DNA of 64,000 nt from an uncultured Alphaproteobacteria bacterium (GTDB taxonomy: Bacteria > Pseudomonadota > Alphaproteobacteria > Rhizobiales > Rhodomicrobiaceae): positions 20,015 to 84,014 of the forward strand of contig CAVXDM010000040.1 of NCBI GenBank assembly GCA_963760455.1. Reading direction: 5' to 3'. Position 1 is the stretch's first letter; every line of letters starts with the position of its first letter. Below the pieces are notes generated by a model, which did not search any database, was not told the origin of the DNA, and worked only from the letters and a program-made list of their open reading frames with translations. Position numbers and translations under genes: made by a program. Below are positions 2,782 through 25,850 of the stretch, in pieces.

Positions 2782-4633
2782 AGCGCGCTCCGCCCGGAAG
2801 CGGGCTGACGCTGGTTGCGGTGGCGCGCGATGGTTACGGGCGTGCGCGATTTCGCAACCTTGCGCACGAAATTATAGCGCGCGATGTGGTAGCTCGGATC
2901 GAAGCCGTAGAAATTGAGACGCATACGAGCCAACTCCTCCTCCCGGTACTTCGCGAGCGGTTTCACCGCTTCTTCGGCCGCGCGTGCGGCTTGACTTTTC
3001 GCAAGACGATCCTCCAAGTCCGGCGCCGCGGCAAGCGCAATCGCGCGCGCTCGCGCTTTGGCGGCGAAATCGTGCGGCGTTGCTCCGAACCGCTCGTTGG
3101 CGAGCCCGATGCGAACCGCTTCCACGGAGCCCATGGGCAGCCGTCTCCTCATGATCGCTTCGGCCAATTCCTGCCCGGCATGACGCGGCAGCGAATAGGT
3201 CCAGAACTCCGATCCGTAGAGGTTTCCCATGTCTTTGTAATGCGGGCTCAGCACAACACCTTCGCGCAGCCAGACAAAATCGGCGGCGCGCGCAAGAAAA
3301 ACGCCTCCAGCGCCAGCATTGCCCTGTAATGCGGCGACGGTCAATTTGCCTTCCGTACTAAGGATGGCATGGGCCAAATCGTCAATGGCGTTGATATTGC
3401 GCCAGGACTTATCGGCGGGGCTTTGGGCGGCCTCGATGAGATTGAGGTTCATGCCGTTGGACCAGAAGTCCGGGCCGCCCATGAGGACGAGCACGCGGGT
3501 GGGCCGGGCGAGGGCCGCGCGGTATGCGGCCAGCAGGCGCTCGCAGGCTTCCGTGCCCATGGCGCCGTTGTAAAAGCGGAAGTGCAGGAAGCCCGCGCCG
3601 CTTTCTTCCTCGTAGGCGATTTCGCGATAACCCTCCGCGCTATCCACCGGCACGGAAGGCACGCTCGCAAGTGCCGTCGCCCAGCACGCGCGTGGCCGGC
3701 AGCTTGATAGGGCAGGGGCTTGCGGTGTCGCGGAGGTGGCCGATCCACACCGCGCCATCTGCGGCGGCGATGGCAACGGCGGGGCCGCTTACGGCAATTG
3801 CTTCGCCGGGGGCGCCTTTGAGATGCGGCGCGGGCTGCGCGTCGTAGAGATAGACGCTGCGGCCAAGGATGCGGCTCTTGAGCCCCGGATTGCCATCGGC
3901 GCTGCGGACCTTGCGCAGGACCGTGGCAGCGCTGTCCCGCTGCCAATCGATGGCGCGGTCTGCTTGCTTCATGGCAGGTCGCCACGTGCCGGGATTGGTG
4001 TTCTGGGCGGCGGTATTCCTCTCCGACGAGAGGGTGCAACCCCTCACCCTGTCCCTCTCCCTCAGGGAGAGGGGACCCCTGAATTATCCGCAGCGGAATT
4101 ACTAGCGTCCCCTCTCCCATGGGGAGAGGGACAGGGTGAGGGGAGATACGGCCAGAAGCGGAATGCGCCACATATCCGCCACGCTCGAAGCGGCCCAAGG
4201 CTTCGAAAACCGCAGCCACGGCGGCCTCCGTGACCTCGTTGCGATAGAGGCTCGATTTTGTGGCCTCGCGCATCGGGAAACCAGCGGACGCCCAGACAGG
4301 CCCGGCGTCCATCTCTTCCTCGGCCTGAAGCACGGTGACGCCCCAGCGCGGAACGGCGTCCAGGATCGCCCAATCGAGCGCGGACGGCCCCCGGTCGCCA
4401 GGAACGCCGGGATGGACGATAAAGCAGGGTAGCGAGCGCCAAACGCTTTCAGGGATGGCGCGCTTCAGGAACGGCGCGACCAGGCAATCGGGCTTGAACA
4501 GCCGGGCCGCCTCTTCCGTCACCGCGTCATTGATATCGAACTCGACCGAAACTTCGTGCCCCGCTGCTTCCAGCTCTACGAACAGCCTCTGGCAAAGGCT
4601 GTTGAAACTGTGGGTAAGAAGCAGGATGCGCAT
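2778..4633 (-). pseudogene. hypX: Hydrogenase maturation factor HypX/HoxX (N-terminal formyltransferase-like domain plus C-terminal crotonase/enoyl-CoA hydratase domain). In this sequence it is split over three frames and carries a palindromic repeat insertion.
   Basis: Three segments on different frames:
- Frame of 3449..4633: FMT-like N-domain (IVHPGVPGDRGPSALDWAIL), read to about 4146.
- Frame of 3640..4047: FMT C-domain (AIDWQRDSAATVLRKVRSADGNPGL).
- Frame of 2778..3776: crotonase fold (GFLHFRFYNGAMGTEA...).
The REP element at 4041..4145 sits exactly in the linker, and the frame changes across it and again near 3660-3710. Confidence 0.6.
4041..4145. repeat. GC-rich palindromic intergenic-type repeat (family 1: ccctcaccctgtccctctccc...gggagagggacagggtgagggg), located inside hypX.
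   Basis: Perfect inverted arms of about 38 bp flank an AT-rich loop (gaattatccgcagcggaattactagcg). In translation it gives the PLPMGEG / GEGQGEG signature. Other copies are at 26951, 59978, 63087 and 63683. Confidence 0.85.
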
Positions 4634-4636
4634 AAC

Positions 4637-5635
4637 TCAGCAAATCCGGGGCAGCGGGTCGCCCGCGAGCCAATCCACCATGCGGCTGCCGCCGAACTTC
4701 GTTTGCATTTGCACGAAGGCGTGGGGGTCCGCGACAACCTCGCCGATAATCGCCGCGTCGCGCCCTAGCGGGTGTGCACGCATGGCGGCGAGCAGGCGCT
4801 GGGCGTCCGGCGCGGCGCAAATCGCGATCAGCTTGCCTTCGTTGGCGATGTAGAGCGGGTCGAGGCCGAGCAGTTCGCAGGCCGCGAGCACGTCCGGCTT
4901 GAAGGGGATGGCGGTCTCGACGAGCCGCATGCCAACGCGCGATTGCTGGGCCATCTCGTTCAAGGTGGAGGCGAGGCCGCCGCGCGTCGGATCGCGCAGG
5001 CAGTGGATGGCGGGGACGGCCGCCACCATGTCCGCGACGAGGCCGTGCAGGGCTGCGCTATCCGAGAGGATCTCGGTTTCGAAGGTCAGGTTCTCGCGCT
5101 TGGAAAGCACCGCGATGCCGTGATCGCCAAGCGTGCCGCTGACCAGGATCGCATCGCCGGGCGCGGCCCGGTCGCCGGAGATATGAACGCCCGGCGGCAC
5201 AACGCCGATGCCGGTGGTGGTGATGAAAACGCCGTCGCCCTTGCCCTTTTCGACAACCTTGGTGTCGCCGGTGACGATGGGCACGCCGGCGTTCGCGGGA
5301 GGCCCGCGCCATGCTGGCCACGATGCGTTCGAGATCGGCGAGCGGATAGCCTTCTTCCAGCACGAACGCGGCGGAAAGATAAAGCGGCCGCGCGCCGGCC
5401 ATCGCCACATCGTTGATGGTGCCGTGCGACCGAAAGCGAGCCGATATCGCCGCCCGGAAAGAACAAGGGCGAGATCACATGCGCGTCGGTGGTCATGACC
5501 ATGCCGGCCGGCGCTCACCTCGAAGGCAGCCTGGTCGTTGGCCTGCGCGAGCCACTCGTTGGCGAAATGGCGGTGGAACAGCGCGCGGATCAGCTCGGCG
5601 GTCGCGCGTCCGCCCGCGCCATGGGCCATCTCGAC
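4637..5635 (-). CDS. hypE: Hydrogenase maturation protein HypE (carbamoyl dehydratase). Three or more frame breaks in this assembly.
   Basis: HypE motifs are spread over three frames: [74 protein letters not shown], and [12 protein letters not shown] ... DPLPRIC at the C-terminus. The 733-aa ORF 4637..6838 is an artefactual read-through of hypD and hypE. Confidence 0.8.
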
Positions 5636-12183: not shown

Positions 12184-13730
12184 ATGGGAATGGGAATGCG
12201 GAAGCATATACTTTTGCGTGAACTTTTGGCGTTTGGGGCGGACGATGCGGTAGCGCTTGCCGCGCCATCGGCCAAGCCGATGACTTACGCGGGATTGCGC
12301 GAGCTGGTCCGTGAAACTGGTGGCGCACTGCGTACTTTGGGCGCCGGCAGCCAGGACCGCGTGGCCATTGTGCTTCCGAACGGTCCCGAAATGGCCGCGG
12401 CATTCCTGAGCGTGGCCGCAAATGCCGCCTCCGCGCCGCTCAACCCCAACTACAAGGCCGATGAGTTCGAGTTCTATCTGTCCGACCTCGGCGCGAAGCT
12501 CCTGATTGTGGAGAAGGGCAGCACCTCGCCTGCCATCGAGGTGGCGAAAAAGCTTGGCGTCAAGATCGTCACGCTGACGCCTGAGCCGGAGCGCGGCGCA
12601 GGCAGCTTCACGCTGACCGGGGAGCCAGAGGCCCAGCCCGCCGGCGCAAGGTGAGGCCGGCCGCTGAGGATGTTGCGCTGGTGCTGCATACCTCGGGCAC
12701 CACGTCGCGCCCCAAGATCGTGCCGCTAAGCCAAAAGAACCTCTGTGCCTCGGGTTGGAACATCGCCCAGACGCTGAAGCTCACGCCCGCCGACCGCTGC
12801 CTCTCCGTCATGCCGCTGTTCCACATTCACGGGCTGATCGCGACGGTGCTCGCCTCCGTGGCGGCCGGCGGAGCTGCGTTCTGCACGCCGGGCTTCAACG
12901 CCTTCAATTTCTTCAACTGGCTCGCCGAGGCCAAGCCCACCTGGTACAGCGCGGTGCCGACCATGCACCAGACGATCCTCTCCCGCGCGGGCAAGAACGA
13001 GGCGGCGATCCGCGCCAACCCTCTCCGTTTCATCCGCTCCTCGTCTGCGTCGCTGCCGCGCCAGGTGCTGAGCGAGCTCGAAAGCGTGTTCAACGCGCCC
13101 GTCATCGAATCCTACGGCATGACCGAGGCTTGCCACCAGATGGCGAGCAACCTCCTGCCGCCCGGCCAGCGCAAGCCTGGAAAAGTCGGCGTCGCGGCCG
13201 GCCCCGAGTTGGGCATCATGGACGAGGCGGGCGAACTGCTGCCGCCCGGCGCCACGGGCGAGGTGGTCATCCGCGGCGATAACGTCACGGCGGGCTACGA
13301 GAACAACCCCAAGGCCAATGCCGAGGCCTTCGCCCATGGCTGGTTCCACACCGGCGACCAGGGCGTGCTCGACGAGGACGGCTACCTCACCATCACCGGC
13401 CGCCTCAAGGAGATCATCAACCGGGGCGGCGAGAAGGTGTCGCCGGCCGAGGTGGACGACGTGCTGATGGATCACCCGGCGGTGCGGCAGGCGCTCACCT
13501 TCGCGGTGCCGCATGCGAAGCTCGGCGAGGAGGTTGCGGCGGCCGTGGTCTTGCGCGAGGGCGCCTCCGTCACCGAGCGCGCGCTCCGCGATTTCGCCGC
13601 CACGCGCCTCGCGGACTTCAAGGTGCCGCGCAAGGTGATCTTCCTCCCCGAAATCCCTAAGGGCGCCACCGGCAAGCTACAGCGCATCGGCCTCGCCCAA
13701 AAGCTCGGGCTGGCCGGCGAAGACGCCTGA
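12184..13730 (+). CDS. AMP-dependent acyl-CoA synthetase (AAE3/oxalate- or malonate-CoA ligase-like). One frame break near 12650.
   Basis: AMP-binding box [11 protein letters not shown], then [11 protein letters not shown], ...GYGMTE and the C-terminal KVPRKV...GKLQR. The N-terminus is in the 12184 frame and the rest in the 12651 frame. Confidence 0.8.
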
Positions 13731-13937
13731 CGGGGCAGGCCCAAAAGAAAAAAGCTTACCTATAAGATTAATCCGCAGCAATGACGGGGACAGGTGACAT
13801 TTTGTTAATGTCATCCCCAGATTTGTATGCACGTTTTCCCCAGTGGACGCCTCACGCGCGTATAGTTTCTGCGCCCGCCCTTCAACGGCCCGTCCGCCGT
13901 GAACGCCGGGCGCAACGCCGTCGCGCGGAGGAGGCGA

Positions 13938-14279
13938 ATGCATATCCTGGTCCTGGAGGACGAGCCGCTGATCGCGGTGGATATCGCCGCGACCATCGCT
14001 GACGCCGGCTGGGACGTGGCCGGCCCGGTAGGCTCGATCCCAAAAGCGTTGCGACTGATAGATGAGAAGCGCTGCGAGGCCGCCATCCTGGATGCGAACC
14101 TTGGGGGCACAAGCGCGGCACCAGTTGCCGAGAGGTTGCTGGCGTGCGGCATCCCTTTCATTGTCTTGTCGGGATACAGCGACGAGCAGTTGCCGAGCCC
14201 GCTTTCAGGCGCGCCATTCCTCGCAAAGCCCTACGACCCGGACGATCTCGTCGCCCTTGTGCGCAGCCTTCGCAGGTAG
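13938..14279 (+). CDS. Single-domain response regulator (CheY-like receiver).
   Basis: MHILVLEDEPLIAVDIA...ILDANLGG...PFIVLSGY is the receiver-domain signature. There is no output domain. Confidence 0.75.
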   Translation: MHILVLEDEPLIAVDIAATIADAGWDVAGPVGSIPKALRLIDEKRCEAAILDANLGGTSAAPVAERLLACGIPFIVLSGYSDEQLPSPLSGAPFLAKPYDPDDLVALVRSLRR

Positions 14280-14377
14280 CGGTTAACAGCGTCCCCATCA
14301 GCCGCTTTGAGCGGCTCACACATAAGATCCCCGGCTTTGCCAGGGCACATTTGCTTTTCTCTAAGTTCTGGTTGCGG

Positions 14378-15946
14378 TCAATCCAGCCTCGGGTAATTCG
14401 CGATGTGCCGGATGCTCTGGTAGAGCCGCGCCAGCCGGGGGTACATGCGCACGTACACCTCGGAATAGAGGCGTGTGTAAAGCTCCTTGTTTCCGGCCCG
14501 CGGCATAAAAATGCGCCCCGGCCGGCTCATCCGCGCCTGCGCCTCTGCATGGTCTGCGTGGAGCCCCGCGCCAACGGCGGCATTCATGGCGGCGCCCAGG
14601 CCAGAGGTCTCGAACGTATGCGGCCGCTCGGCGGGAATGCCGAAGATATCGGCGGTTACCTGCATGACGCCGTCGCTCTGCGAGCCGCCGCCCGCGACCT
14701 TCAGCCGTTCGATCTTCACGCCATTGCGCCGCGAAAGCCGCGCCGCCGCCTCGCGCAGCGCATAGGCGATGCCTTCGACGATGGCGCGGTACATATGCGC
14801 CCGGTTGTGCACGTCGCCGAAGCCGATCATCGCGCCCTTGGCCTCCGGCCCTGGAATCCGCACGCCCGGATTCCAGAACGGCTGCAGGATAAGGCCCATA
14901 TTGCCGGGCGGCGTTGATTCCAGCATCTTCTCGAACAGCACTTCCGGCGCGATGCCCTGCTCCTCGGCCTCGATCACCTCGTGCGCGGCGAACTGCTCCT
15001 TGAACCAGTTGACCATCCAGTAGCCGCGCTGGACCATGATTTCGCTGTTATAGCGGCCCGGGCGCCGCGGCAGGGTAGGGCGGCAGGAACGGGATCGGCT
15101 CGACATAGCGATCGTTGCAAGTGTTGATCGTCGCCGTCGTGCCGTAGCTCAAGACCGCGAGTTCTGGCGTCCACGCGCCTGCAGCCAGCACCTCGCAGGC
15201 CTTATCCGCGCCCGACGCATAGACCGGCAGCCCCTCGGGAATGCCCGTATCGCTGGCCGCCTCAGCGGTAATACGGCCAATCGATTGGCCGGCTGGGACC
15301 AGTTCCGGCAGCACCTCGCGTTTCACACAGAAGAGCTTCCATGTGAGATCGCGCGGTCCCGCCCATTGCTGCCGTTTGCCGTCGAAAGGAACGTACCCTA
15401 CTTGGACGCCACAGCGTCGCGCAATTGCCCGGTCAGCCTGAGATGGAAATACCCCGAAAGAAACAGGAAGTGCCGCGTCCTGGCCCACAGCGCGGCGTCA
15501 TCGGCGGCGAGCCAATTGCATTCGGCGCGGGACTGGAAGTAGTGGATGGCCCGGCGCTGGCCAGCCGCGCGCAGGCCGGCTTCGAGCCACAACGGCAGAG
15601 CCGGATATTGGCTGGTGCGGCGCTGGTCGAGCCAGCTTACAGCCGGGCGCAGGGGCTTGCGGTTTTCGTCGAGGCACACCGTGACGGAGCGCTGCGTGGT
15701 GACGGACATGCCGGCGATGCGCGGCTTGTACTCCGGGTGCGTCCGCCAGAGGCCCTGGCAGGCTTCGCAGAGATTGGTCCAATAGTAGCCGCAATCCTGC
15801 TCGGCCCAGCCCGGCGCCCGCGAGAAATAGGGCTGGATATGCACCTGCGACTTGGCGAGAAGCTCGCCCCCGGCATCGAAAATCATCGCCCGGACGCTTT
15901 GCGTCCCCTGATCGATGGCCAGGAGGAGGTCTTTGCTTTCCCTCAC
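14378..15946 (-). CDS. FGGY-family carbohydrate kinase (glycerol/xylulose kinase-like). Two frame breaks.
   Basis: LLAIDQGTQSVRAMIFD (N-terminal FGGY domain), ...VLSYGTTATINT, and ...KVAGGGSQSDGVMQVTADIFGIPAERP (C-terminal FGGY domain), distributed over three overlapping ORFs. Confidence 0.75.
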
Positions 15947-17444
15947 GGCGTTCCCGTTCCCCCCGGCGCCCGATAGCTTTCCGCTACGATTTTCAGATAG
16001 CGCTCCATCTCAGCATGCCAGCGCGGCTCGTCCCAGCCAAGACGGCTTTGGCATAAGCCCTCGATCCGAGGTAGCACCTCTTGAGCGCCGGCGGGCATCG
16101 TGTTGCCGAGGCTCACGCGGCGCAGCAGGAGGTCGTCCAGGTGCACGACCATCTCATTGCCGAGCACCCACTCGATCGTATCGAGGAGCGCCTGGCCCTT
16201 CGGCAACGGCAATGCCGGGTGGCCAAGCCCGTGCGGGAAGGTGAGCTTCTGCCGGAACAGCGGCCCCGCTGCGTGCTTGCGGCTTTCAGTTCCGCCTCGC
16301 CGATCAGCCCCGCGGCGTGCAGGGCGTCGAGCGCGATGAGCCGGAAGGTGGTGAGCTTGCCGCCGGCCACGCAAACCATGCCATCGCGATGCCAGATCGA
16401 ATGCTCGCGGCTTTCCTGCGACGGGTTCAAGCCCTTGCCCGAGGCGATCACCGGCCTGACACCCGCCATGGCCGACACCACATCGGCGGAGGTAATCCCA
16501 GCGCGACGGAAACACATGGCGGATCAGCTCCAGAGAGGTAATCCAATTCCTCCTGGGTGCAGCGCGGCTCCTCCGAGAGCGGCTCGTTGTGATCGAGATC
16601 GGTCGTTCCAACGACGGTCATCCCCGCCCATGGGAAAATGAAGACGGGGCGCTTGTCCCTTGGGTGCAGGGCGGTGATGCAATCGTCGGTAGGCAGGCGG
16701 CCGCGCTCGAAGAACAGGTGGCTGCCGCGCAACGGCCGGATTTTGCGCGGGCTCGCCCGAGAGCGGCTTCGGCCCATGCGCCCGCCGCGTCGATGACCGT
16801 GGCCGCTTCGAATACGGCCTGCCTGCCGCTTACTTCGTCGCGCACCTGGAGCGAGAACCGCGCGCCGGAGGCCCGCACGCTTTCCACCCGCATGTAATTG
16901 GCAAGCCGCCCGCCATCGGCCGCGGCCTCGTGCAGGATGCGAAAAACCAGCCGCGCGTCGTCGGTCAGCGCGTCGGTGTAAATCATCGCGCCGCGCAGGC
17001 GATCCGGCGAGAGGCCGGGCAGGCGCTCAAGCAGCTCCTTGCGGCCGATCCAGCGGTGATCCCTGATGCCGGCCAGAAAGTCGTAGAGCCACAGCACCGC
17101 CGTCAAGGGCCAGCGGCCAGGGAACTCTCCCTGGCGCACCAGGAAGGCATAAGTCTGCCGGATCACCAGGCCCGGCAGCTCGCGGATCATGCGCTCCCGC
17201 TCCCGCAGCGCGTCGCGCGTCAGGCGGAAATCCCCTTGCGCGATATAGCGCAAGCCGCCATGCACCATTTTCGACGAGCGGCTCGACGTTCCCCAGGCGA
17301 AATCCTTCTGCTCCAGCAGCAGCGCCTTCCGCCCTCGCCGCGCGGCTTCGAGCAGGACGCCAGCACCCGTGATGCCGCCGCCGATGACGATCACGTCCCA
17401 GCGCGTGGCCGCAAGCTCCTCGATATCGGGCCGTTCGCCGAACA
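15943..17444 (-). CDS. glpD: FAD-dependent glycerol-3-phosphate dehydrogenase GlpD. About three frame breaks.
   Basis: MFGERPDIEELAATRWDVIVIGGGITGAGV...MVHGGLRY is the GlpD N-terminus (RBS GGAGGAA). Pieces continue in ORFs 16448..16777, 16113..16517 and 15943..16611. Confidence 0.8.
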
Positions 17445-17446
17445 TT

Positions 17447-19169
17447 CTATTCCTCCAGCAGACAGCCTGGGTTGAGCCGCCCATCGGGGTCGAAATAGCC
17501 CGTGAGCGCCCTGAGCGCCCCCATGCCTTGCTCGCCCTTCTCGTATTTGAGCCACGGCGCGTGATCGCGGCCCACGCCGTGCTGATGGCTGATCGTGCCG
17601 CCCATTTTGACGATGGCTTCGGATGCTGCCGTCTTGCAGGCGCGCCAGCGTTCGAGCGTGCCCTCGTAGCTGGCGGCATTCTTGAAAACGTAGGTTGTGT
17701 AGATGCTGCAGCCTTGGGCGTACATGTGCGAGAGGTGCGAAAAGACGAGCACCGGCTCGGCGCCGCTGGCGGTCCGGATCGCCTGCTCCATGGCCTGCAT
17801 GGTGGCCGTGACCTTGCTCCAGTTGATGGACGTTTCGAGCGTGTCGACGGAATAGCCGTGCTCCCAGAGCCCGTTGCGCAGGTAGGGCGCGCGGAAGCGG
17901 GAATGCTCCCAAAGCCTGCCCAGGACCCGGTGGCCAAGCGAGGCGCCGCCGGCCCGCCGCAAGGCGCGCCACACTTCGCCGAGCGCGAAGGCCGCTTGCC
18001 GTTTGCTTCCTGTCGCGCCGAACGTGACCATGCAGCGTTCGCCATCCTTGCAGCCGAAAAGCGCAAGGCCACGGTCGAGGAGGGCCGCCCCCCGGCTGAT
18101 CGCCGGCCAGCGCCAGTTGCGTGGCGGTCTCCACCGGGTTCGACAGGCGCAGCATGGATAGCTGCACCTTGGCCTGCGCAAGTTGCCTGACCAGGTTCAG
18201 CGCCTGCCTCCCAGTTGGGCACGAAGGCGGCATGAAACAACTCGCGCTCCGGCAGCGGCGTGACCCGGAGCTTGACCTCCGTGATGGCGCCGATCCGCCC
18301 TTCGCTGCCGAGAATCAACTCGCGCAAGTCAGGCCCGGCAGCCGAAGCCGGCACATCGGGTATGGTCATCGTGCCGTGCGGCGTCTCGATGCGCGCGCCC
18401 GCGAACATCTGCTCGATGCGCCCGTAGCGCAGCGATTGCTGGCCGGAGGAGCGGGTGGCGACCCAGCCGCCGACGGTGGATAGCTCAAAGGATTGCGGAA
18501 AATGGCCAAGCGTGTAGCCGTTTTCCTTGAGCTGCCGCTCAAGCGCCGGGCCGGGAGTGCCCGCGCCGAAGGTTGCGATTTGGCTTTGCCGGTCCAGCGC
18601 CAGCAGGCGGTTCATCCGTTCCAGGGAGAGGGTCAGCACCGGCTCCGGCAGGCGGGAACGTTGACGTGGCCAGCCACGGAGGTTCCGCCGCCATAAAGAA
18701 TGACGGCGAAGCGCTGGCCCAAAGCCCATTGCAGCACCTCGCGCACTTCCTCGCTGGTGGCCGGCAGCGCCACGCCGTCCGGAAAACGGCCGAAATCGCC
18801 GGAACGCATGGCCAGCCAATCGGGAAAGCTCTGCCCCCGGGCGTGGCGGATGCGCGTTTCCGCGCCTGTCGATACGAGCGGATGGGGAGGCAGCCGCGAT
18901 TCGGGCACCTGTGCGATGACCGAAGCCAGGCTGGCATCGGGCAGAATCGCGCCCGGCCCGTTCAAGAGCTGGTTGAGAAACGCCAGCGCCTTGGGCTTCA
19001 GCGGGAAGTCAGTTTCCTCCCCGCCCCAGCCATTCCACCGGCGCCGGCCGCCCCTCAAGTCCCAATCCAATGCTCGCCGTCCCCGAAAATGGCCGCGCCC
19101 GCGAAATTCATAGCACGCCGCCGCATGTTTGTCCTTCGCCGGGAAGCCGGCAGGCGGTCTGTCCGCCAA
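17447..19169 (-). CDS. FAD-linked oxidase, alkyl-dihydroxyacetonephosphate-synthase-like (FAD-binding-4 domain plus C-terminal FAD-oxidase domain). Two frame breaks.
   Basis: ...RWNGWG...VILYGGGTSVAGHVNVP, ...STVGGWVATRSSGQQSLRYGRIEQM, and a C-terminus with HQHGVGRDHAPWL. Its stop overlaps the glpD start. Confidence 0.7.
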
Positions 19170-19442
19170 TCGTTGGCCGTTCCCGCACGAACTTTTGATC
19201 GGAATGAAAATGCAGCACGCGGAAAAAAAATATTTGGCGGTTGTGGACGGCGAGGTGCCGGGTTGCAGGCCCGAAACGCAGCGAAGTCTTTGTTTTCAAC
19301 GAGCTGGCCGATGCCGCAAAAGTGAATGTTCGATACAATTCAGTTTTAGGTAATTCCAGGCGACGCTCTGTTCAACGCACAGGAAACGTGTTAAGCGTTT
19401 TACTCTTGAAACTCATGGGGGGGAAGAAGGAGGAGTCGATAT

Positions 19443-19857
19443 ATGTCGCAGATTAAGCGTGCTTCCAAAGGGAAGAGATCGAATAGGGCCTTGACCGCTC
19501 TAAGTGTTGCGGGCGTGTCGCTGGCCGCAACGGCCGCCAGCTCGGCCGCAGTGTTGAGCCCGGTGACTGTACCGGCTATGCCTTTGGGCGAGGAGGAGAT
19601 CTCCGGCGTCACCTTGGCGACATTCCACCTCCTGGACCAGGAAAAGGCCGGAGCGAAAGACGATTTGCTGCAACTGACCGGATGCCGCGGATGCGGTGGC
19701 ATGGCTGCGAGGCTGCAGAGGTGGCTGCGGCGGTGGCGGCAGAGGTTGCGGTGGCCATGGTTGCCGCGGTGGCTGGGGCGGTTGCGGCGGTTGCGGCGGT
19801 TGCGGCTGCGGTGGCGGCTGGTGTCTGTCGTGGGGCGGTTGCAGGCCCTGGTGCTAA
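19443..19857 (+). CDS. Putative TOMM/LAP precursor peptide. The leader is in frame 0 (19443-~19704). The Gly/Cys-rich core is in the +1 frame (~19702-19857, ...GCRGGCGGGGRGCGGHGCRGGWGGCGGCGGCGCGGGWCLSWGGCRPWC*).
   Basis: Strong RBS AGGAGGAG 8 nt before the ATG at 19443. An AT-rich promoter region lies upstream. The gene is directly upstream of the YcaO gene. The +1 frame has a stop at 19675-19677 and no start of its own, so the core must be reached by a frame change. Confidence 0.55.
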
Positions 19858-20126
19858 GCAGGCGCGCCTTTTTGGTTGCCTGACAGGCGCGTATCGCTAT
19901 GGCCGGGCTGGCATGACTGGTCCGGTCAAAGCGTTTTCTGCGGGCGGCGAGTGTGGCCGCTCAGCGCGATAGGACGCCTCAAGCCGCATCGGGAACGGTG
20001 CGGCATGCGTCGCTTGACGCAAACGGGAAGTGCTTGAGCGGAAAACAAATTCAAGATAAATTGCGATGTTCTGGCGGCCGGGGTATACGCCTTCAATTGG
20101 CGCCGGAAGGAGCTTTGACCGGCCTC

Positions 20127-22388
20127 ATGACAAGCGAACAAGCCGACGCTTTCGCGCCGCATAGCGGCGAAACGATTCCGCAATTCTCGCCGAACTTCAC
20201 GGTTTTCCAGCTATCGCCCGATACCCTGTGCCTCTACTCGGAGGACCGGAAATTCCTTCTTCATGGGCAAGTGTTTTGCGCGCTTGCCGCCTTGATCGCC
20301 GAGGGCGGGCAGAGCTTCGAGCAGCTCGTGGGTGCGCTGGAGCGGCAATTCCCGCGGGACCACATACAAGAAGCCCTGCAGAGGCTGATCGTCCGCCGCT
20401 ACATCGTGGCGAAACCCCAGTCTCTTACCGGCTTGGCCGCTGCCTATTGGGCGAGCCTTGGTCTGGCGCCGGATGCCGCGGAGAAAAATCTGCAAGACTG
20501 CCGCGTCCGGATTCAGGCATTCGACGTTCAAGGCGAGCAGGAGCTTGCCGGTGCGCTGGGCGAGCTGGGCGTCCGCGTGGTCAAGCGCTCCCAGGATATG
20601 AGTGTCACGCTGGTGGGCGATTATCTGGAAGAGCAGCTTTCGGATGTGAATAAGCGGCATTTGTCATCGGGCGCTCCGTGGGTGCTCGCGCAGCCGACCG
20701 GCATTTTCCCGCTCGTTGGGCCGGTGTTCCGGCCTGGCCAGGGGCCTTGCTGGATGTGCCTTGCGGACCGCATGGTGCGCAATAGAGAAGTGAGGGCGCT
20801 GCTCGACAGCAGCGAGGCCCGCTGCCTGAGCGTGTCGCCATTGGTGCGGCATACGATGGGGCAAAGCGGCATCCAGCTTGCGGCGAACGAGATCGCGAAA
20901 GCTATCGCCACCGGTTTCCGTACCGATCTGAACCAGCATATCGTAAGCCTCGACCTTTTGGGCTCAGCCGTCGCGAAGCACTATGTGGCGGCCCGTCCGC
21001 AATGCCCGGTTTGCGGCAAGGACGATCTGCACAATCCCGCCCGCGCCGCCGTTCCGCTGGAATTGCAGGGTGGCGGCAAGCCGGTCATGACCAGCGGCGG
21101 CTACCGCACGGTCACGTCGCGGGCCACGGTTGCGCGTCACCGCAAGCATGTGAGCCCGCTCACCGGCGTGGTGTCCAAGCTGGAGCGCGCGGAGGTGGAC
21201 CTGCCGCTGAACGCCACCTACATCGCGGCGCACAGCTTCTCGGCGCCATCGAAAACCGTCAACGAACTCCGGGGCAGCCTCAACAGCTACAGCTTCGGCA
21301 AGGGAAGCACGGCGGAGCAGGGTGAAGCGAGCGCCCTTATGGAGGCGATCGAGCGCTACTCCGGCGTTTACATGGGCGACGAAATCCGGGCGCCCGGGCG
21401 GTTCGTGGACTTCGCGCCTGGCGACGCCATTCCGCCGAACGACGTCCTGCTCTTCAGCGATGAGCAAGTCCGGCAAAGCATGGAGCCCGTGCCTGGCCCC
21501 GAGGACGAGCCGATGAGCCCGACGCTCTTCGACAAGGAGGCCGAGATCGATTGGTCGCCGGTCTGGTCGCTGCGGGACAACCGCTTCAAACATCTGCCTA
21601 CGAGCCTTCTCTATTTCGCCTATCGCGGCTCCGCGGGCTTCCAGGCCGATTCGAACGGCTGCGCGGCCGGCAACACGGTCGAGGAAGCGATTGTGCAAGG
21701 CTTCCTGGAGCTGGTCGAACGGGATGCCTATGCGCTGTGGTGGTATAACCGGGTGCCGCGTCCCGAGGTGGACCTCGCCAAGTTCGACGATTCCTACGTG
21801 CACGACCTTCGCAATCAGTTGAGCGAAACCGGCCGGCGCCTCTGGGTGCTTGACATCACGACCGATTTGGGGATTCCGAGCTACGTCGCGATCGCGCACT
21901 GGATCAAGGACGGGGCCGAATACATCGATTTCGGCTCGGGCTCGCACTTCGACGCGCGCATCGCCATGCTGCGGGCGCTGACGGAGCTGAACCAGTTCAT
22001 GTCGCTCGGGCTGTTGAGCGCGGACGCGAGGATGCAGGCGAGCCTCGACGGAGATCTGCCGCTGCGGCTTCAAGATTTTCCGTATCTCTTGCCGGGCAAG
22101 GGGCCGGCGGTGGAATCGGCCTTCGACCCCGATTTCGGCCATCTTGAGCCGCGCGATCAGGTGAAGGCCTGCGTGCGCACCGTCGAAAAGGCCGGCCTCG
22201 ATTTTCTCGTGCTCAATCAGACGCGGCCGGACATCGAGGTCCCGGTGGTCAGGGTGATCGTCCCCGGAATCCGGCATTTCTACCGCCGTTTCGCGCCCGG
22301 CCGGCTTTACGATGTGCCGGTGCAACTCGGGTGGCTCAAAAAGCCGGTCAGGGAAGACCAGCTCAATCCGATATTCCCTCATACTTGA
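20127..22388 (+). CDS. Fused E1-like (ThiF/ocin_ThiF_like docking) plus YcaO cyclodehydratase, i.e. a TOMM C-D fusion (azoline-forming heterocyclase).
   Basis: Intact ORF with RBS GGAAGGAG before ATG 20127. The N-terminal half has paired CxxC (CWMCLADR, CPVCGKDD). The C-terminal half has the YcaO ATP-binding motif EASALMEAIERYSGVY and a proline-containing C-terminus. Confidence 0.85.
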   Translation: MTSEQADAFAPHSGETIPQFSPNFTVFQLSPDTLCLYSEDRKFLLHGQVFCALAALIAEGGQSFEQLVGALERQFPRDHIQEALQRLIVRRYIVAKPQSLTGLAAAYWASLGLAPDAAEKNLQDCRVRIQAFDVQGEQELAGALGELGVRVVKRSQDMSVTLVGDYLEEQLSDVNKRHLSSGAPWVLAQPTGIFPLVGPVFRPGQGPCWMCLADRMVRNREVRALLDSSEARCLSVSPLVRHTMGQSGIQLAANEIAKAIATGFRTDLNQHIVSLDLLGSAVAKHYVAARPQCPVCGKDDLHNPARAAVPLELQGGGKPVMTSGGYRTVTSRATVARHRKHVSPLTGVVSKLERAEVDLPLNATYIAAHSFSAPSKTVNELRGSLNSYSFGKGSTAEQGEASALMEAIERYSGVYMGDEIRAPGRFVDFAPGDAIPPNDVLLFSDEQVRQSMEPVPGPEDEPMSPTLFDKEAEIDWSPVWSLRDNRFKHLPTSLLYFAYRGSAGFQADSNGCAAGNTVEEAIVQGFLELVERDAYALWWYNRVPRPEVDLAKFDDSYVHDLRNQLSETGRRLWVLDITTDLGIPSYVAIAHWIKDGAEYIDFGSGSHFDARIAMLRALTELNQFMSLGLLSADARMQASLDGDLPLRLQDFPYLLPGKGPAVESAFDPDFGHLEPRDQVKACVRTVEKAGLDFLVLNQTRPDIEVPVVRVIVPGIRHFYRRFAPGRLYDVPVQLGWLKKPVREDQLNPIFPHT

Positions 22389-22398
22389 GGAGCGAGCC

Positions 22399-23849
22399 GT
22401 GGCACCTGGATCGAAACCGCCGCGTCCGGGCCTGTCCGCCCGGCTCAACGGCAGGGGCAAGCTGGAGGCCCATTCGAACGGGGCCATCGTCGCCTGCCTG
22501 GAAGAATATACGGTCAATCTGGGGGCGTTCAGCGCGGCTGCGTGGGATGCCGCGCAAGAGCTTGCAACCGGACTGCCGCTCGGCTCGCTCGGCCCAGGAG
22601 GCGGGAGCACGGCCAAGGAACTGGACGTCCTCGTCCGGCGCCTGGCAGGCCACGGCCTGCTGGAATACCGCGCCGGGCATCCGCGCGGACGACGCTGGGG
22701 ATCTGCTCGTTATCGAGCCGCTGCTTTCCAGCTATTGGCCGCGGATACCGCAGCTTGACGATGCGGATACGCTGCTGCTTTCGCGGTTTGCGTTCATGCG
22801 ACGCCGCGACGATGGGATGGTGCTGGAATCGCCCCGCGCCAGTGCGCTGTTCCGGATCTGCGATCCGGAATTTGCGAGCCTCGTTGCCATGCTCGCTTCA
22901 CCCCAGCAAATCGGCAAGCTGCGCCGGCAGGAGGGTTTCCCCGGCGTGGAGTTCCTTGCCCTGCTGGTCGATAGCCAAATCGCCTTCAAGGCCGGAGAGG
23001 CTGCCGATAGCGGCTCGCGCTGGGCCGAGGGTGACAACAGTCTGGCGCTGTGGGACTTCCACGACCTTCTGTTCCACGCCCGCAGCACCGAGGGCCGGCA
23101 CGCCAACCCGATAGGCGCCGTCTCTCCGCATAGCGGCATCGCTGCCCAAGCTGCCGGCGGTCAGGCCTTCCTGGCCCGGCGAGAAAATCGATCTTTGCGC
23201 GCACCTGGAGCCCGGCCCGGAAGCCCAACCGCCGATTGTCGAGCTGCTGCGGGAGCGTCACTCGGTGCGCTGCTTCGACGACCGGAAGCCCATCACTCTT
23301 GCCGAGCTTTCGCAGTTTCTCGACGGCTCCGCGCGCGCGGTGATGCGGCAGCTCGGGGGCAGAGGCGGCAAGGACGGTACGGCCCGGCTGTTCCCGCCCT
23401 ATGCGTCCGGGGGCGCAAGCTACCCACTGGAGGTCTATCTGGCGGTCAACACCTGCGAAGGGCTGGCCCGCGGCTTCTATCATTACGATGCCCATGCCCA
23501 TGCGCTGACGGCCATCGAGGTACCTGCGAGCGAAATCAAGGGGCTGCTGGAGCGGGCGGCATCTGCGATGGGCGAGGAGGCGCCGCCGCAAGTCCTGATT
23601 ACAATCGCGGCACGCTTCGGCCGAACCTCCTGGAGATATAGCTCACTCGCCTATTCGCTTATCCTCAAGGATGTGGGGATCTTGACGCAAAACCTGTACC
23701 TCGTGGCCGCCGCGATGGGGCTCGGCGGATGCGCGATCGGGCTCGTCAATATCGGCCAGTTCGAAAAGATGACCGGGATCGGATTCCATGTTGAAGGCCC
23801 GGCCGGCCAGTTCGCGCTTGGCCGCTGCCTGCCGTCCGGCTCTGGCTGA
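22399..23849 (+). CDS. SagB/McbC-type FMN-dependent dehydrogenase (azoline to azole oxidase). Two frame breaks.
   Basis: GTG start with GAGGAG RBS, 8 nt after the YcaO stop. The C-terminal half has the nitroreductase fold: RRSVRCFDDRKPITLAELSQFL, ...PPYASGGASYPLEVYLAV, ...RTSWRYSSLAYSLILKDVG. Confidence 0.8.
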
Positions 23850-23894
23850 GCATCGGCGGCGCCCGGTCGAAGGCCCGGCCGGCAGTCTCCAGCC

Positions 23895-24729
23895 CTACTG
23901 GGGCGGCCCGCCATCCGGCAGGTCCGGAGAGCCGCTTGGCGAATAGCACCCGATGCTCATGCGGGCACGCCTGTCGACTAGCGCAAAGATGGCGCCTTGA
24001 GGATCCCTGCAATGGATGGCCTGAGCGCCGCCCTGCACAGTAAACGGGCCGTCGAGAATCTGGCCGCCGGCCGCCTCGACGCGCTTGGCCGCCGCCGCGA
24101 CGCCTGCGACGTTGAAGTAATAGAGCCACAGCGAAAACGGCCGATTGGCCGGGCCTCGCGAGCATGCCGCCGATGGTCTTTCCGCCGGCGGAGAATTCCT
24201 GGTACGTATCTTCTGGATCTGCCGGAGCCCCTGCTTTTTGCCAGCCAAGCAGCGGGCCGTAGAAGGCGAATGAGCGCTCAATGCTGGCCGTATGCAACTC
24301 GTGCCAGCCTACCGCGCCTGGTCCCCGTGGAGCCGGTTGCTGCTGGCTGTCTTCGCGGTCGTTGACCAAGGCGATCGTGCCCCTTTGCGGGTCCGCGACG
24401 ATCGAGAAACGGCTGACACCAAGGACATCCGCCGGCGGGATGTGCACCACGCCGCCGAGCTGTTCCACGCGATTCGCGGTATCGTCCACGCTGTCAACTG
24501 CGACATAGCCGATCCATTGCTGCTCCGCGCCGTTCTCCAGGGCATCCGGGGGTAGGCCGATCACGCCGGCGACAGGGGTGTCCTTGGCGATGAACAGGGT
24601 GTAGGGCGCGTCCGGCATCGAAACGTCCGCCGTGCGCCAGCCCAGGACGGCGGAATAGAATGCCTTCGCACCTTCCACGTCCGCCGCCGCCAGCTCGTAC
24701 CAGACGAAGCGGTTGCCTGAATTGTCCAT
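23895..24729 (-). CDS. Two-domain VOC-family (glyoxalase/bleomycin-resistance/dioxygenase fold) protein. One frame break.
   Basis: An N-terminal VOC domain (FVWYELAAADVEGAKAFYSAVLGW) and a second VOC domain (WHELHTASIERSFAFYGPLLGW ... PFSLWLYYFNVAGVAAAAKRVEAAGGQIL) are present. The gene is convergent with the TOMM operon. Confidence 0.65.
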
Positions 24730-24839
24730 GCCCGTCCCTTCGCCGAAGGCCGTGAAAAAACCGAAAGGCCGCGCGCCGGTGTTCCGCTGTGGGCCGCCTC
24801 TCCAATTTAAGTCATGTTAGCAGATGCGGCCTACGGAAG

Positions 24840-25850
<1,011 letters not shown>

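Follow-up and report, generated by a model that had tools for sequence, protein, structure and literature searches.

The closest described relatives of the locus analysed here are microcin B17 and the linear azole-containing peptides (LAP/TOMM), with which it shares a short precursor, composed of a leader at the N-terminus and a Gly-rich core built from Gly-Cys units, as well as the position of this precursor immediately upstream of the genes for a YcaO cyclodehydratase with its E1-like/RRE partner and for an FMN dehydrogenase. It differs from microcin B17 in having a single C-D fusion cyclodehydratase (instead of the separate McbB/C/D subunits), in a core that is almost exclusively Cys and ends in a conserved WCLSWGGCRPWC motif, and in a leader that begins with a signal-peptide-like segment; moreover, no McbEFG-type export/immunity genes were seen at this locus, where a tandem glyoxalase/Ble-like protein is conserved instead. 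Heterocycloanthracin and sonorensin (TIGR03601, Bacillus) likewise have a repetitive Cys/Gly core built from codon repeats beside a TOMM cyclodehydratase, whereas the precursor considered here has another leader, belongs to another taxon (Hyphomicrobiales) and gave no match to TIGR03601 or any other NCBIfam model at E <= 0.01. No Pfam or NCBIfam model matches it, be it in its assembled or in its repaired form, and literature searches returned no paper describing the precursor family.

The locus lies in a 64,000-nucleotide stretch of DNA (hereafter the window) from an uncultured member of the Rhodomicrobiaceae, in which the original prediction had placed a leader in frame 0, starting at ATG 19443 behind a strong ribosome-binding site, and a Cys/Gly-rich core readable solely in the +1 frame. 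The assembled sequence bears out this layout: an AAGGAGG Shine-Dalgarno motif precedes a frame-0 ORF of 146 aa (19443..19883, start ATG 19443 in the ORF list), and the +1 frame is bounded by a TGA (19675-19677) and a TAA (19855-19857), as had been read. The frame-0 ORF opens with MSQIKRASKGKRSNR, reads on to LGEEEISGVTLATFHLLDQEKAGAKDDLLQLTGCRGCGG (the frame-0 reading being ...LLQLTGCRGCGG, also ...DDLLQLTGCRGCGG, and after it MAARLQRWLRRWRQRLRW...) and then continues into the Arg/Trp/Leu tail; this tail is present as predicted, yet it is not strictly free of heterocyclisable residues, since it contains two Ser. In the +1 frame the core ends with WCLSWGGCRPWC before the stop. A three-frame translation showed that the Cys/Gly reading crosses three frames (from ...GCRGCGG in f0, through HGC in f2, to RGCRGGC... 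in f1), and that the core is, as assembled, out of frame with its leader (Table 1). A terminator and promoter scan around the precursor recovered one weak terminator-like site over the TAA, fewer than in shuffled sequences.

Table 1. Features of the precursor locus and its downstream neighbours (positions are those of the window).
Feature	Position	Strand	Basis and remarks
Shine-Dalgarno AAGGAGG	19427..19433	+	Read from the sequence; 9 nt 5' of ATG 19443
Leader and first core residues, frame 0	19443..19700	+	MSQIKRASKGKRSNR...LGEEEISGVTLATFHLLDQEKAGAKDDLLQLT-GCRGCGG; ORF list and homologues
Putative missing C (first deletion)	19700..19701	+	GGTGGC/ATGG, expected to read GGTGGCCATGG
Eight bases ATGGCTGC between the putative deletions	19701..19708	+	(H)GC, in the +2 frame only
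Putative missing A (second deletion)	19708..19709	+	GGCTGC/GA, expected to read GGCTGCAGA
Rest of the Cys/Gly/Arg-rich core, +1 frame	19709..19857	+	(R)GCRGGCGGGGRGCGGHGCRGGWGGCGGCGGCGCGGGWCLSWGGCRPWC; TAA 19855-19857
Probably spurious 3' extension of the frame-0 ORF past the true stop	19858..19883	+	Tail not conserved as protein
Fused E1-like leader-binding/YcaO cyclodehydratase	20127..22388	+	TIGR03882 (1-164/164), TIGR03604, PF02624; intact
ThcOx/SagB-type FMN dehydrogenase	22399..23849	+	PF22767; split over three frames by 1-nt insertions at ~22689 and ~23141
Tandem glyoxalase/bleomycin-resistance-like (VOC) protein	23895..24729	-	Pfam; convergent; frameshifted at ~24140, two tblastn pieces

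The small precursor ORF adjoins a co-oriented YcaO cyclodehydratase with an E1-like/RRE partner, and the cluster includes an FMN-dependent dehydrogenase of the SagB/ThcOx type, both of which are hallmarks of LAP/TOMM loci. The YcaO fusion is 99.2% identical over 753 aa to its counterpart in the related locus L002, although its start is uncertain (the longest ORF begins at GTG 19953 and spans 811 aa, whereas the 753-aa gene of L002 aligns from 20127). The dehydrogenase was recovered by tblastn as three pieces (22399-22689, 22691-23140 and 23142-23846), 98-99% identical to the intact 482-aa protein of L002, and its gaps are identical in the comparisons with L001, L002 and L003, where the gene is intact and carries both PF22767 and PF00881. 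The succession of precursor, YcaO fusion and dehydrogenase is repeated in 54-61 related loci, and a glyoxalase-like gene lies near the cluster in 52 of them, mostly convergent and downstream, at times upstream (e.g., L002 14434-15267, minus strand). Considering the YcaO fusion, the dehydrogenase and this recurrent gene order, we assign the locus to the TOMM (linear azole-containing peptide) clusters, with the ORF as its predicted precursor. Two further peculiarities of the related loci were registered: in L003 an IS-type transposase (DUF772/DDE_Tnp_1; 15579-16940) sits between the glyoxalase-like and DUF3829 genes and is absent from the window and from L002, and in L001 a pair of Vsr endonuclease and C5 DNA methylase genes (3229-4816) is found near the cluster. 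Systematic basecalling errors in Nanopore sequencing are known to arise at methylated motifs.

From the domain content we would expect the E1-like/RRE portion of the fusion protein to bind the leader, its YcaO domain to turn Gly-Cys units into thiazolines with ATP, and the ThcOx/SagB-type flavoprotein to oxidise the thiazolines to thiazoles. The glyoxalase/Ble-like protein might, speculatively, provide self-resistance by binding the thiazole-rich product. The first ~35 residues of the leader (19443-19560), here and in all the related loci, resemble a Sec-type signal peptide, with a Lys/Arg-rich N-terminus followed by a hydrophobic Ala/Leu/Val/Ser stretch (KRASKGKRSNRALTALSVAGVSLAATAASSAAV), and the conserved module of the related loci holds neither a protease nor an ABC exporter. 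Hence, it is conceivable that the general secretion machinery could export the precursor and remove its leader, which, if so, would set it apart from most YcaO-modified peptides.

A search with the leader recovered 14 homologous proteins (identity up to 100%), six of which carry leader and Cys/Gly core in one ORF ending in ...WCLSWGGCRPWC (CLSWGGC(R)PWC) or ...CCLSWGGCYLC, while seven (the product of the window included) are out of frame, with a break site that is different in each. The one-genome-per-species scan confirmed 190 loci, from which 80 were kept; all of these are of the Hyphomicrobiales type (Rhodomicrobium, Methylocapsa, Methylocella, Methylocystis, Bradyrhizobium, Xanthobacteraceae) and conserve the leader motif LGEEEISxV(S/T)LATFH. 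Translation in the leader frame (genome collection together with ENA/JGI contigs) gave an in-frame core with the C-terminal motif in 40 loci, among them the isolates Methylocapsa acidiphila B2 (L067) and M. palsarum (L039) and the short-read MAGs L006, L007, L009, L026, L060 and L072. JGI metagenome contigs contributed 18 further relatives (17 in frame), such that, over all sources, more than 55 Hyphomicrobiales precursors have leader and Cys/Gly core in one frame. Since the core and its C-terminal motif are conserved in dozens of orthologues, the Cys/Gly frame is evidently no chance ORF. The comparison of orthologues, which the original prediction had regarded as decisive, thus favoured the Cys/Gly frame, fused in frame to the leader, and no orthologue conserves the Arg/Trp tail as the selected frame.

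These orthologues also bear on the idea that the core is made alone, as a leaderless 53-aa peptide, with the frame-0 ORF encoding a separate protein. The +1 frame had been said to have no start codon; it indeed lacks an ATG, but a GTG at 19696 does open an ORF (19696..19857), from which such a peptide could in principle be initiated. This GTG is not preceded by a Shine-Dalgarno sequence, no orthologue has a separate core ORF (leader and core form one polypeptide family-wide), and the leader-peptide-binding domain of the cyclodehydratase (TIGR03882) implies a leader-dependent substrate; the match of the leaderless peptide to the family profile reaches just 22.6 bits, with a heavy composition bias. 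We therefore regard initiation at this GTG as extremely improbable.

Variation within the core was followed over its last 123 nt across four sequences (the window, L001, L003 and L086), three of them 'frameshifted'. Of the 13 variable sites, 11 occupy the third codon position in the Cys/Gly frame, and amino acid changes touch 2 of 41 codons in this frame, compared with 11 of 40 and 8 of 40 for the remaining two. From this preponderance of third-position changes and the scarcity of replaced codons we infer that selection acts on the Cys/Gly frame.

A CRISPR-like or non-coding tandem repeat was ruled out. TRF returned imperfect periods of 6, 9, 12, 18, 21 and 30 (62-83% matches), all multiples of 3 save for one period-8 row that marks a missing base, and the variation at third codon positions also speaks against it; the repeat is codon repetition, just as originally read.

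Out-of-frame versions of the gene were encountered almost only in Flye-style long-read assemblies, at break positions that differ, some of them leaving the frame and returning to it. The window runs through f0, f2 and f1, and L003 takes the same path at other sites; L002 shifts straight after QLT and L086 after QLTGG, L087 and L085 show several frame shifts each, and P0007 and P0012 go back to the original frame. In our reading of the 80-locus scan, the approximately nine clearly out-of-frame loci are all 'MFD...' long-read MAG contigs. By platform, frameshifted loci account for 9 of 53 long-read MAGs versus 1-2 of about 25 short-read MAGs and isolates, a difference that is suggestive but not statistically strong alone.

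Such an assortment of break sites is difficult to reconcile with a programmed +1 ribosomal frameshift that fuses leader and core during translation. The likeness to the prfB/RF2 system is superficial, being confined to an upstream ORF that is continued in the +1 frame, whereas this locus lacks a conserved shift site, a slippery codon and an in-frame stop at the junction, and its orthologues are in frame. Although four out-of-frame versions (window, L002, L003 and L086) end in a net +1 frame, and a rare-looking AGG codon (19710-19712, frame 0) lies near the junction, a net +1 outcome in 4 of 5 cases does not reach significance. The out-of-frame arrangement is not conserved (the more than 55 in-frame orthologues include isolates), positions and paths differ among the window, L002, L003, L085, L086 and L087 without a common shift site, and the window would require two events (f0 to f2, then f2 to f1) 8 nt apart. 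No slippery P-site codon is found at 19701-19711 (GCG cannot re-pair on CGA), and there is no in-frame stop or conserved stimulator. The original prediction had already judged recoding unlikely; with orthologues in frame and no common shift site, we assign it a vanishingly small probability.

The 'MFD...' MAGs stem from a Nanopore-only project that relied on Flye assembly and a single Medaka round, which serves to lower the number of indel errors (PMC12313526). The closest ENA relatives bear Flye-style contig_N names, and the window presumably shares the Nanopore/Flye-type origin of these relatives and of the MFD MAGs. A telling pair comes from the JGI contigs: L089 (= P0007), the sole out-of-frame contig among the 18, is 100% identical over 432 nt to the intact L088, an allele from a neighbouring sample, bar three single-G deletions in G runs of the core. 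With three indels and zero substitutions, the difference between the two, judging from their alignment, cannot be evolution.

At the junction itself, a single indel had been proposed to join leader and core. Removing one base out of 19701-19710 does so (giving 137 aa), but two 1-nt deletions fit better: when a C is put back after 19700 and an A after 19708, the product is a 138-aa ...LLQLTGCRGCGG-HGC-RGCRGGCGGGGRGCGGHGCRGGWGGCGGCGGCGCGGGWCLSWGGCRPWC with 14 Cys among the 59 residues of its core, and the junction would read GGTGGCCATGGCTGCAGAGGC. Several observations converge on these two positions. An internal copy TGCGGTGGCCATGG at 19738-19751 can be set against TGCGGTGGC-ATGG at 19692-19704; the TRF row at 19703-19721 has a period of 8 yet a 9-nt consensus (GGCTGCAGA), its first copy (GGCTGC-GA) being one base short; blastn against L003 places 1-nt gaps at ~19700 and ~19709; and the frame path switches from f0 to f2 at 19700/19701. 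Core lengths agree with the loss of two bases: relative to 195 nt, the window and L003 are each 2 nt short (193 nt), and L085 is 3 nt short (192 nt). Against a family profile built from 40 intact orthologues, the assembled gene reaches 97.6 bits; removing one base raises the score to 155.3 and restoring two raises it to 159.2, the two repairs being only 4 bits apart. We consider the single-base repair (A19701 removed, ...GGWLRGC...) less likely, as it scores lower and fits neither the internal repeats nor L003. Hence, the lesion is best explained, on the strength of these alignments, by two 1-nt deletions (after 19700 and after 19708) rather than by one indel. The junction was also looked for in JGI metagenomes as an exact pattern, both as assembled and with the two bases added, and 0 matches were obtained.

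The precursor is not the only gene broken in this part of the window. At least 10 private 1-nt frameshifts were located in six neighbouring genes between 12.2 and 24.7 kb, all of which are intact in relatives of ~99% identity; the sites include ~12663, 15055, 16535, 16745, 18098, 18201, 22689, 23141 and 24140. By tblastn with the intact proteins of these relatives, we counted three frame breaks in the FAD oxidase (four pieces), two in the GlpD-like DAO (three pieces), two in the ThcOx dehydrogenase, and one each in the glyoxalase, the AMP-binding enzyme and the FGGY kinase (two pieces each), in genes that are 98-99% identical to those of relatives where they are unbroken. The alignment with L002 contains 37 gap openings over 18.8 kb (gaps:mismatches 37:445), with the most gaps per kb in the 19-kb bin; at some 15-20 of the gaps, L001, L002 and L003 agree with one another and the window alone has one extra nucleotide. 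The relatives have private breaks of their own (YcaO split in L001, L003, L086 and L087; FGGY in L002 and L003). Private 1-nt indels that break conserved genes, together with G-run deletions in the core (as in L089), resemble the indel errors of Nanopore-only assemblies, although many of the insertions in the window lie outside homopolymers. Most of the errors in the neighbouring genes are insertions; the precursor, by contrast, would have to have lost two bases (or gained one). One ORF of this region, 733 aa long and on the minus strand (16618-18819), is a frameshift chimera of part of the FAD-linked oxidase (PF01565) and the first 211 positions of the GlpD-like DAO domain, with two separate intact genes (540 and 499 aa) as counterparts in L002.

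The original prediction had spoken of assembly-wide indel noise. The noise is real at 12.2-25.1 kb, but its extension to the whole assembly is not established: mismatches and 1-nt indels against L002/L003 are concentrated in a block of ~12.5 kb (12600-25100, with up to 57-69 mismatches/kb at 16-19 kb), and the flanks at 9.6-12 kb (to 12.6) and 25.1-29.9 kb are about 99.5-100% identical to L002 and nearly gap-free. A GC3 frame plot across the window was too noisy for frameshifts to be counted, and ten pairs of adjacent stop-to-stop ORFs with coding-like GC3, taken from outside 12-25 kb and scanned with Pfam, showed no clear split domains. Thus, by these comparisons, the noise is regional and not demonstrably assembly-wide; such a block could stem from shallow read coverage, from the merging of a strain bubble or from recombination of the segment.

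The same breaks may be read as genuine indel mutations, in which case the precursor, and perhaps the whole cluster, would be a recently inactivated pseudogene in this strain. The dehydrogenase and the glyoxalase-like gene of the cluster are likewise out of frame in the window, and the proportion of gaps to mismatches in the L002 alignment would not, taken alone, speak against neutral decay. However, the glpD-like, glpK-like, FAD-oxidase and acyl-CoA-synthetase-like genes are also broken while remaining 98-99% identical to intact relatives, and every lesion is private to one assembly, none being common to related lineages. Core substitutions are still synonymous in the Cys/Gly frame, and the L088/L089 pair differs by indels alone. 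We hold such an inactivation to be unlikely, though less so than programmed frameshifting.

Among the seven long-read assemblies of the window's clade, five have an out-of-frame core; one of these is L002, in which the remaining genes of the 20-kb locus are intact bar a split FGGY kinase. This proportion is far above what a uniform error rate would predict, and a local cause is thus needed. G-rich short repeats, or mixtures of repeat-length alleles merged by the consensus step, are a plausible source of this local excess of indels. That the Cys/Gly core is instead a natural hotspot of frame-changing length variation (with on/off switching of the peptide, or recoding in the clade) seems to us very improbable.

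We reason that the locus encodes one ordinary LAP/TOMM precursor from which two bases were lost as consensus errors of a noisy, most likely Nanopore-only, assembly, and we put the probability of this reading at about 0.86. The precursor would consist of a leader of ~78 residues and, in the same frame, a Gly/Cys/Arg-rich core of ~60 residues ending in GGGWCLSWGGCRPWC. The loss of the C and then of the A would move the frame from f0 to f2 to f1, and the core would for this reason appear in the +1 frame; both deletions would be errors of the consensus and not features of the organism's DNA or of its translation. Sequencing or assembly error was also the reading preferred at the outset, and it agrees with the in-frame orthologues, the differing shift sites and the private 1-nt indels of the neighbouring genes.

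Some members of the family depart from this architecture. L023 (6001-6540) and L033/L034 (6001-6680) combine the same leader with a Gly/Cys/Tyr-rich middle part and a BA14K end (PF07886, E = 3e-11) that replaces the CLSWGGC motif; in L023 the YcaO and dehydrogenase genes are still present ~2 kb downstream. A Bradyrhizobium subfamily (L029, L032, L040, L062-L066, L070, L077, L079 and L082) has the leader motif and a short core ..GCGCACSCAPCAYWPQPPQPPKATQPTQHRKKKPPHRTN, and no YcaO gene was found inside the fetched flanks of its loci.

The frameshift is, as far as sequence comparison can tell, almost certainly an artefact of assembly and not a biological feature, and it ought not to be described as recoding. 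In Nanopore-only MAGs, RiPP cores that are GC-rich and repetitive are broken preferentially, and precursor mining misses or mis-translates them unless the frames are repaired. Once repaired, the gene is a member of a widespread Hyphomicrobiales precursor family with a conserved four-gene module, a poly-Cys core and an uncharacterised product. This family, of a known LAP/TOMM kind, is a reasonable natural-product target in its own right, separate from any claim about the frameshift.
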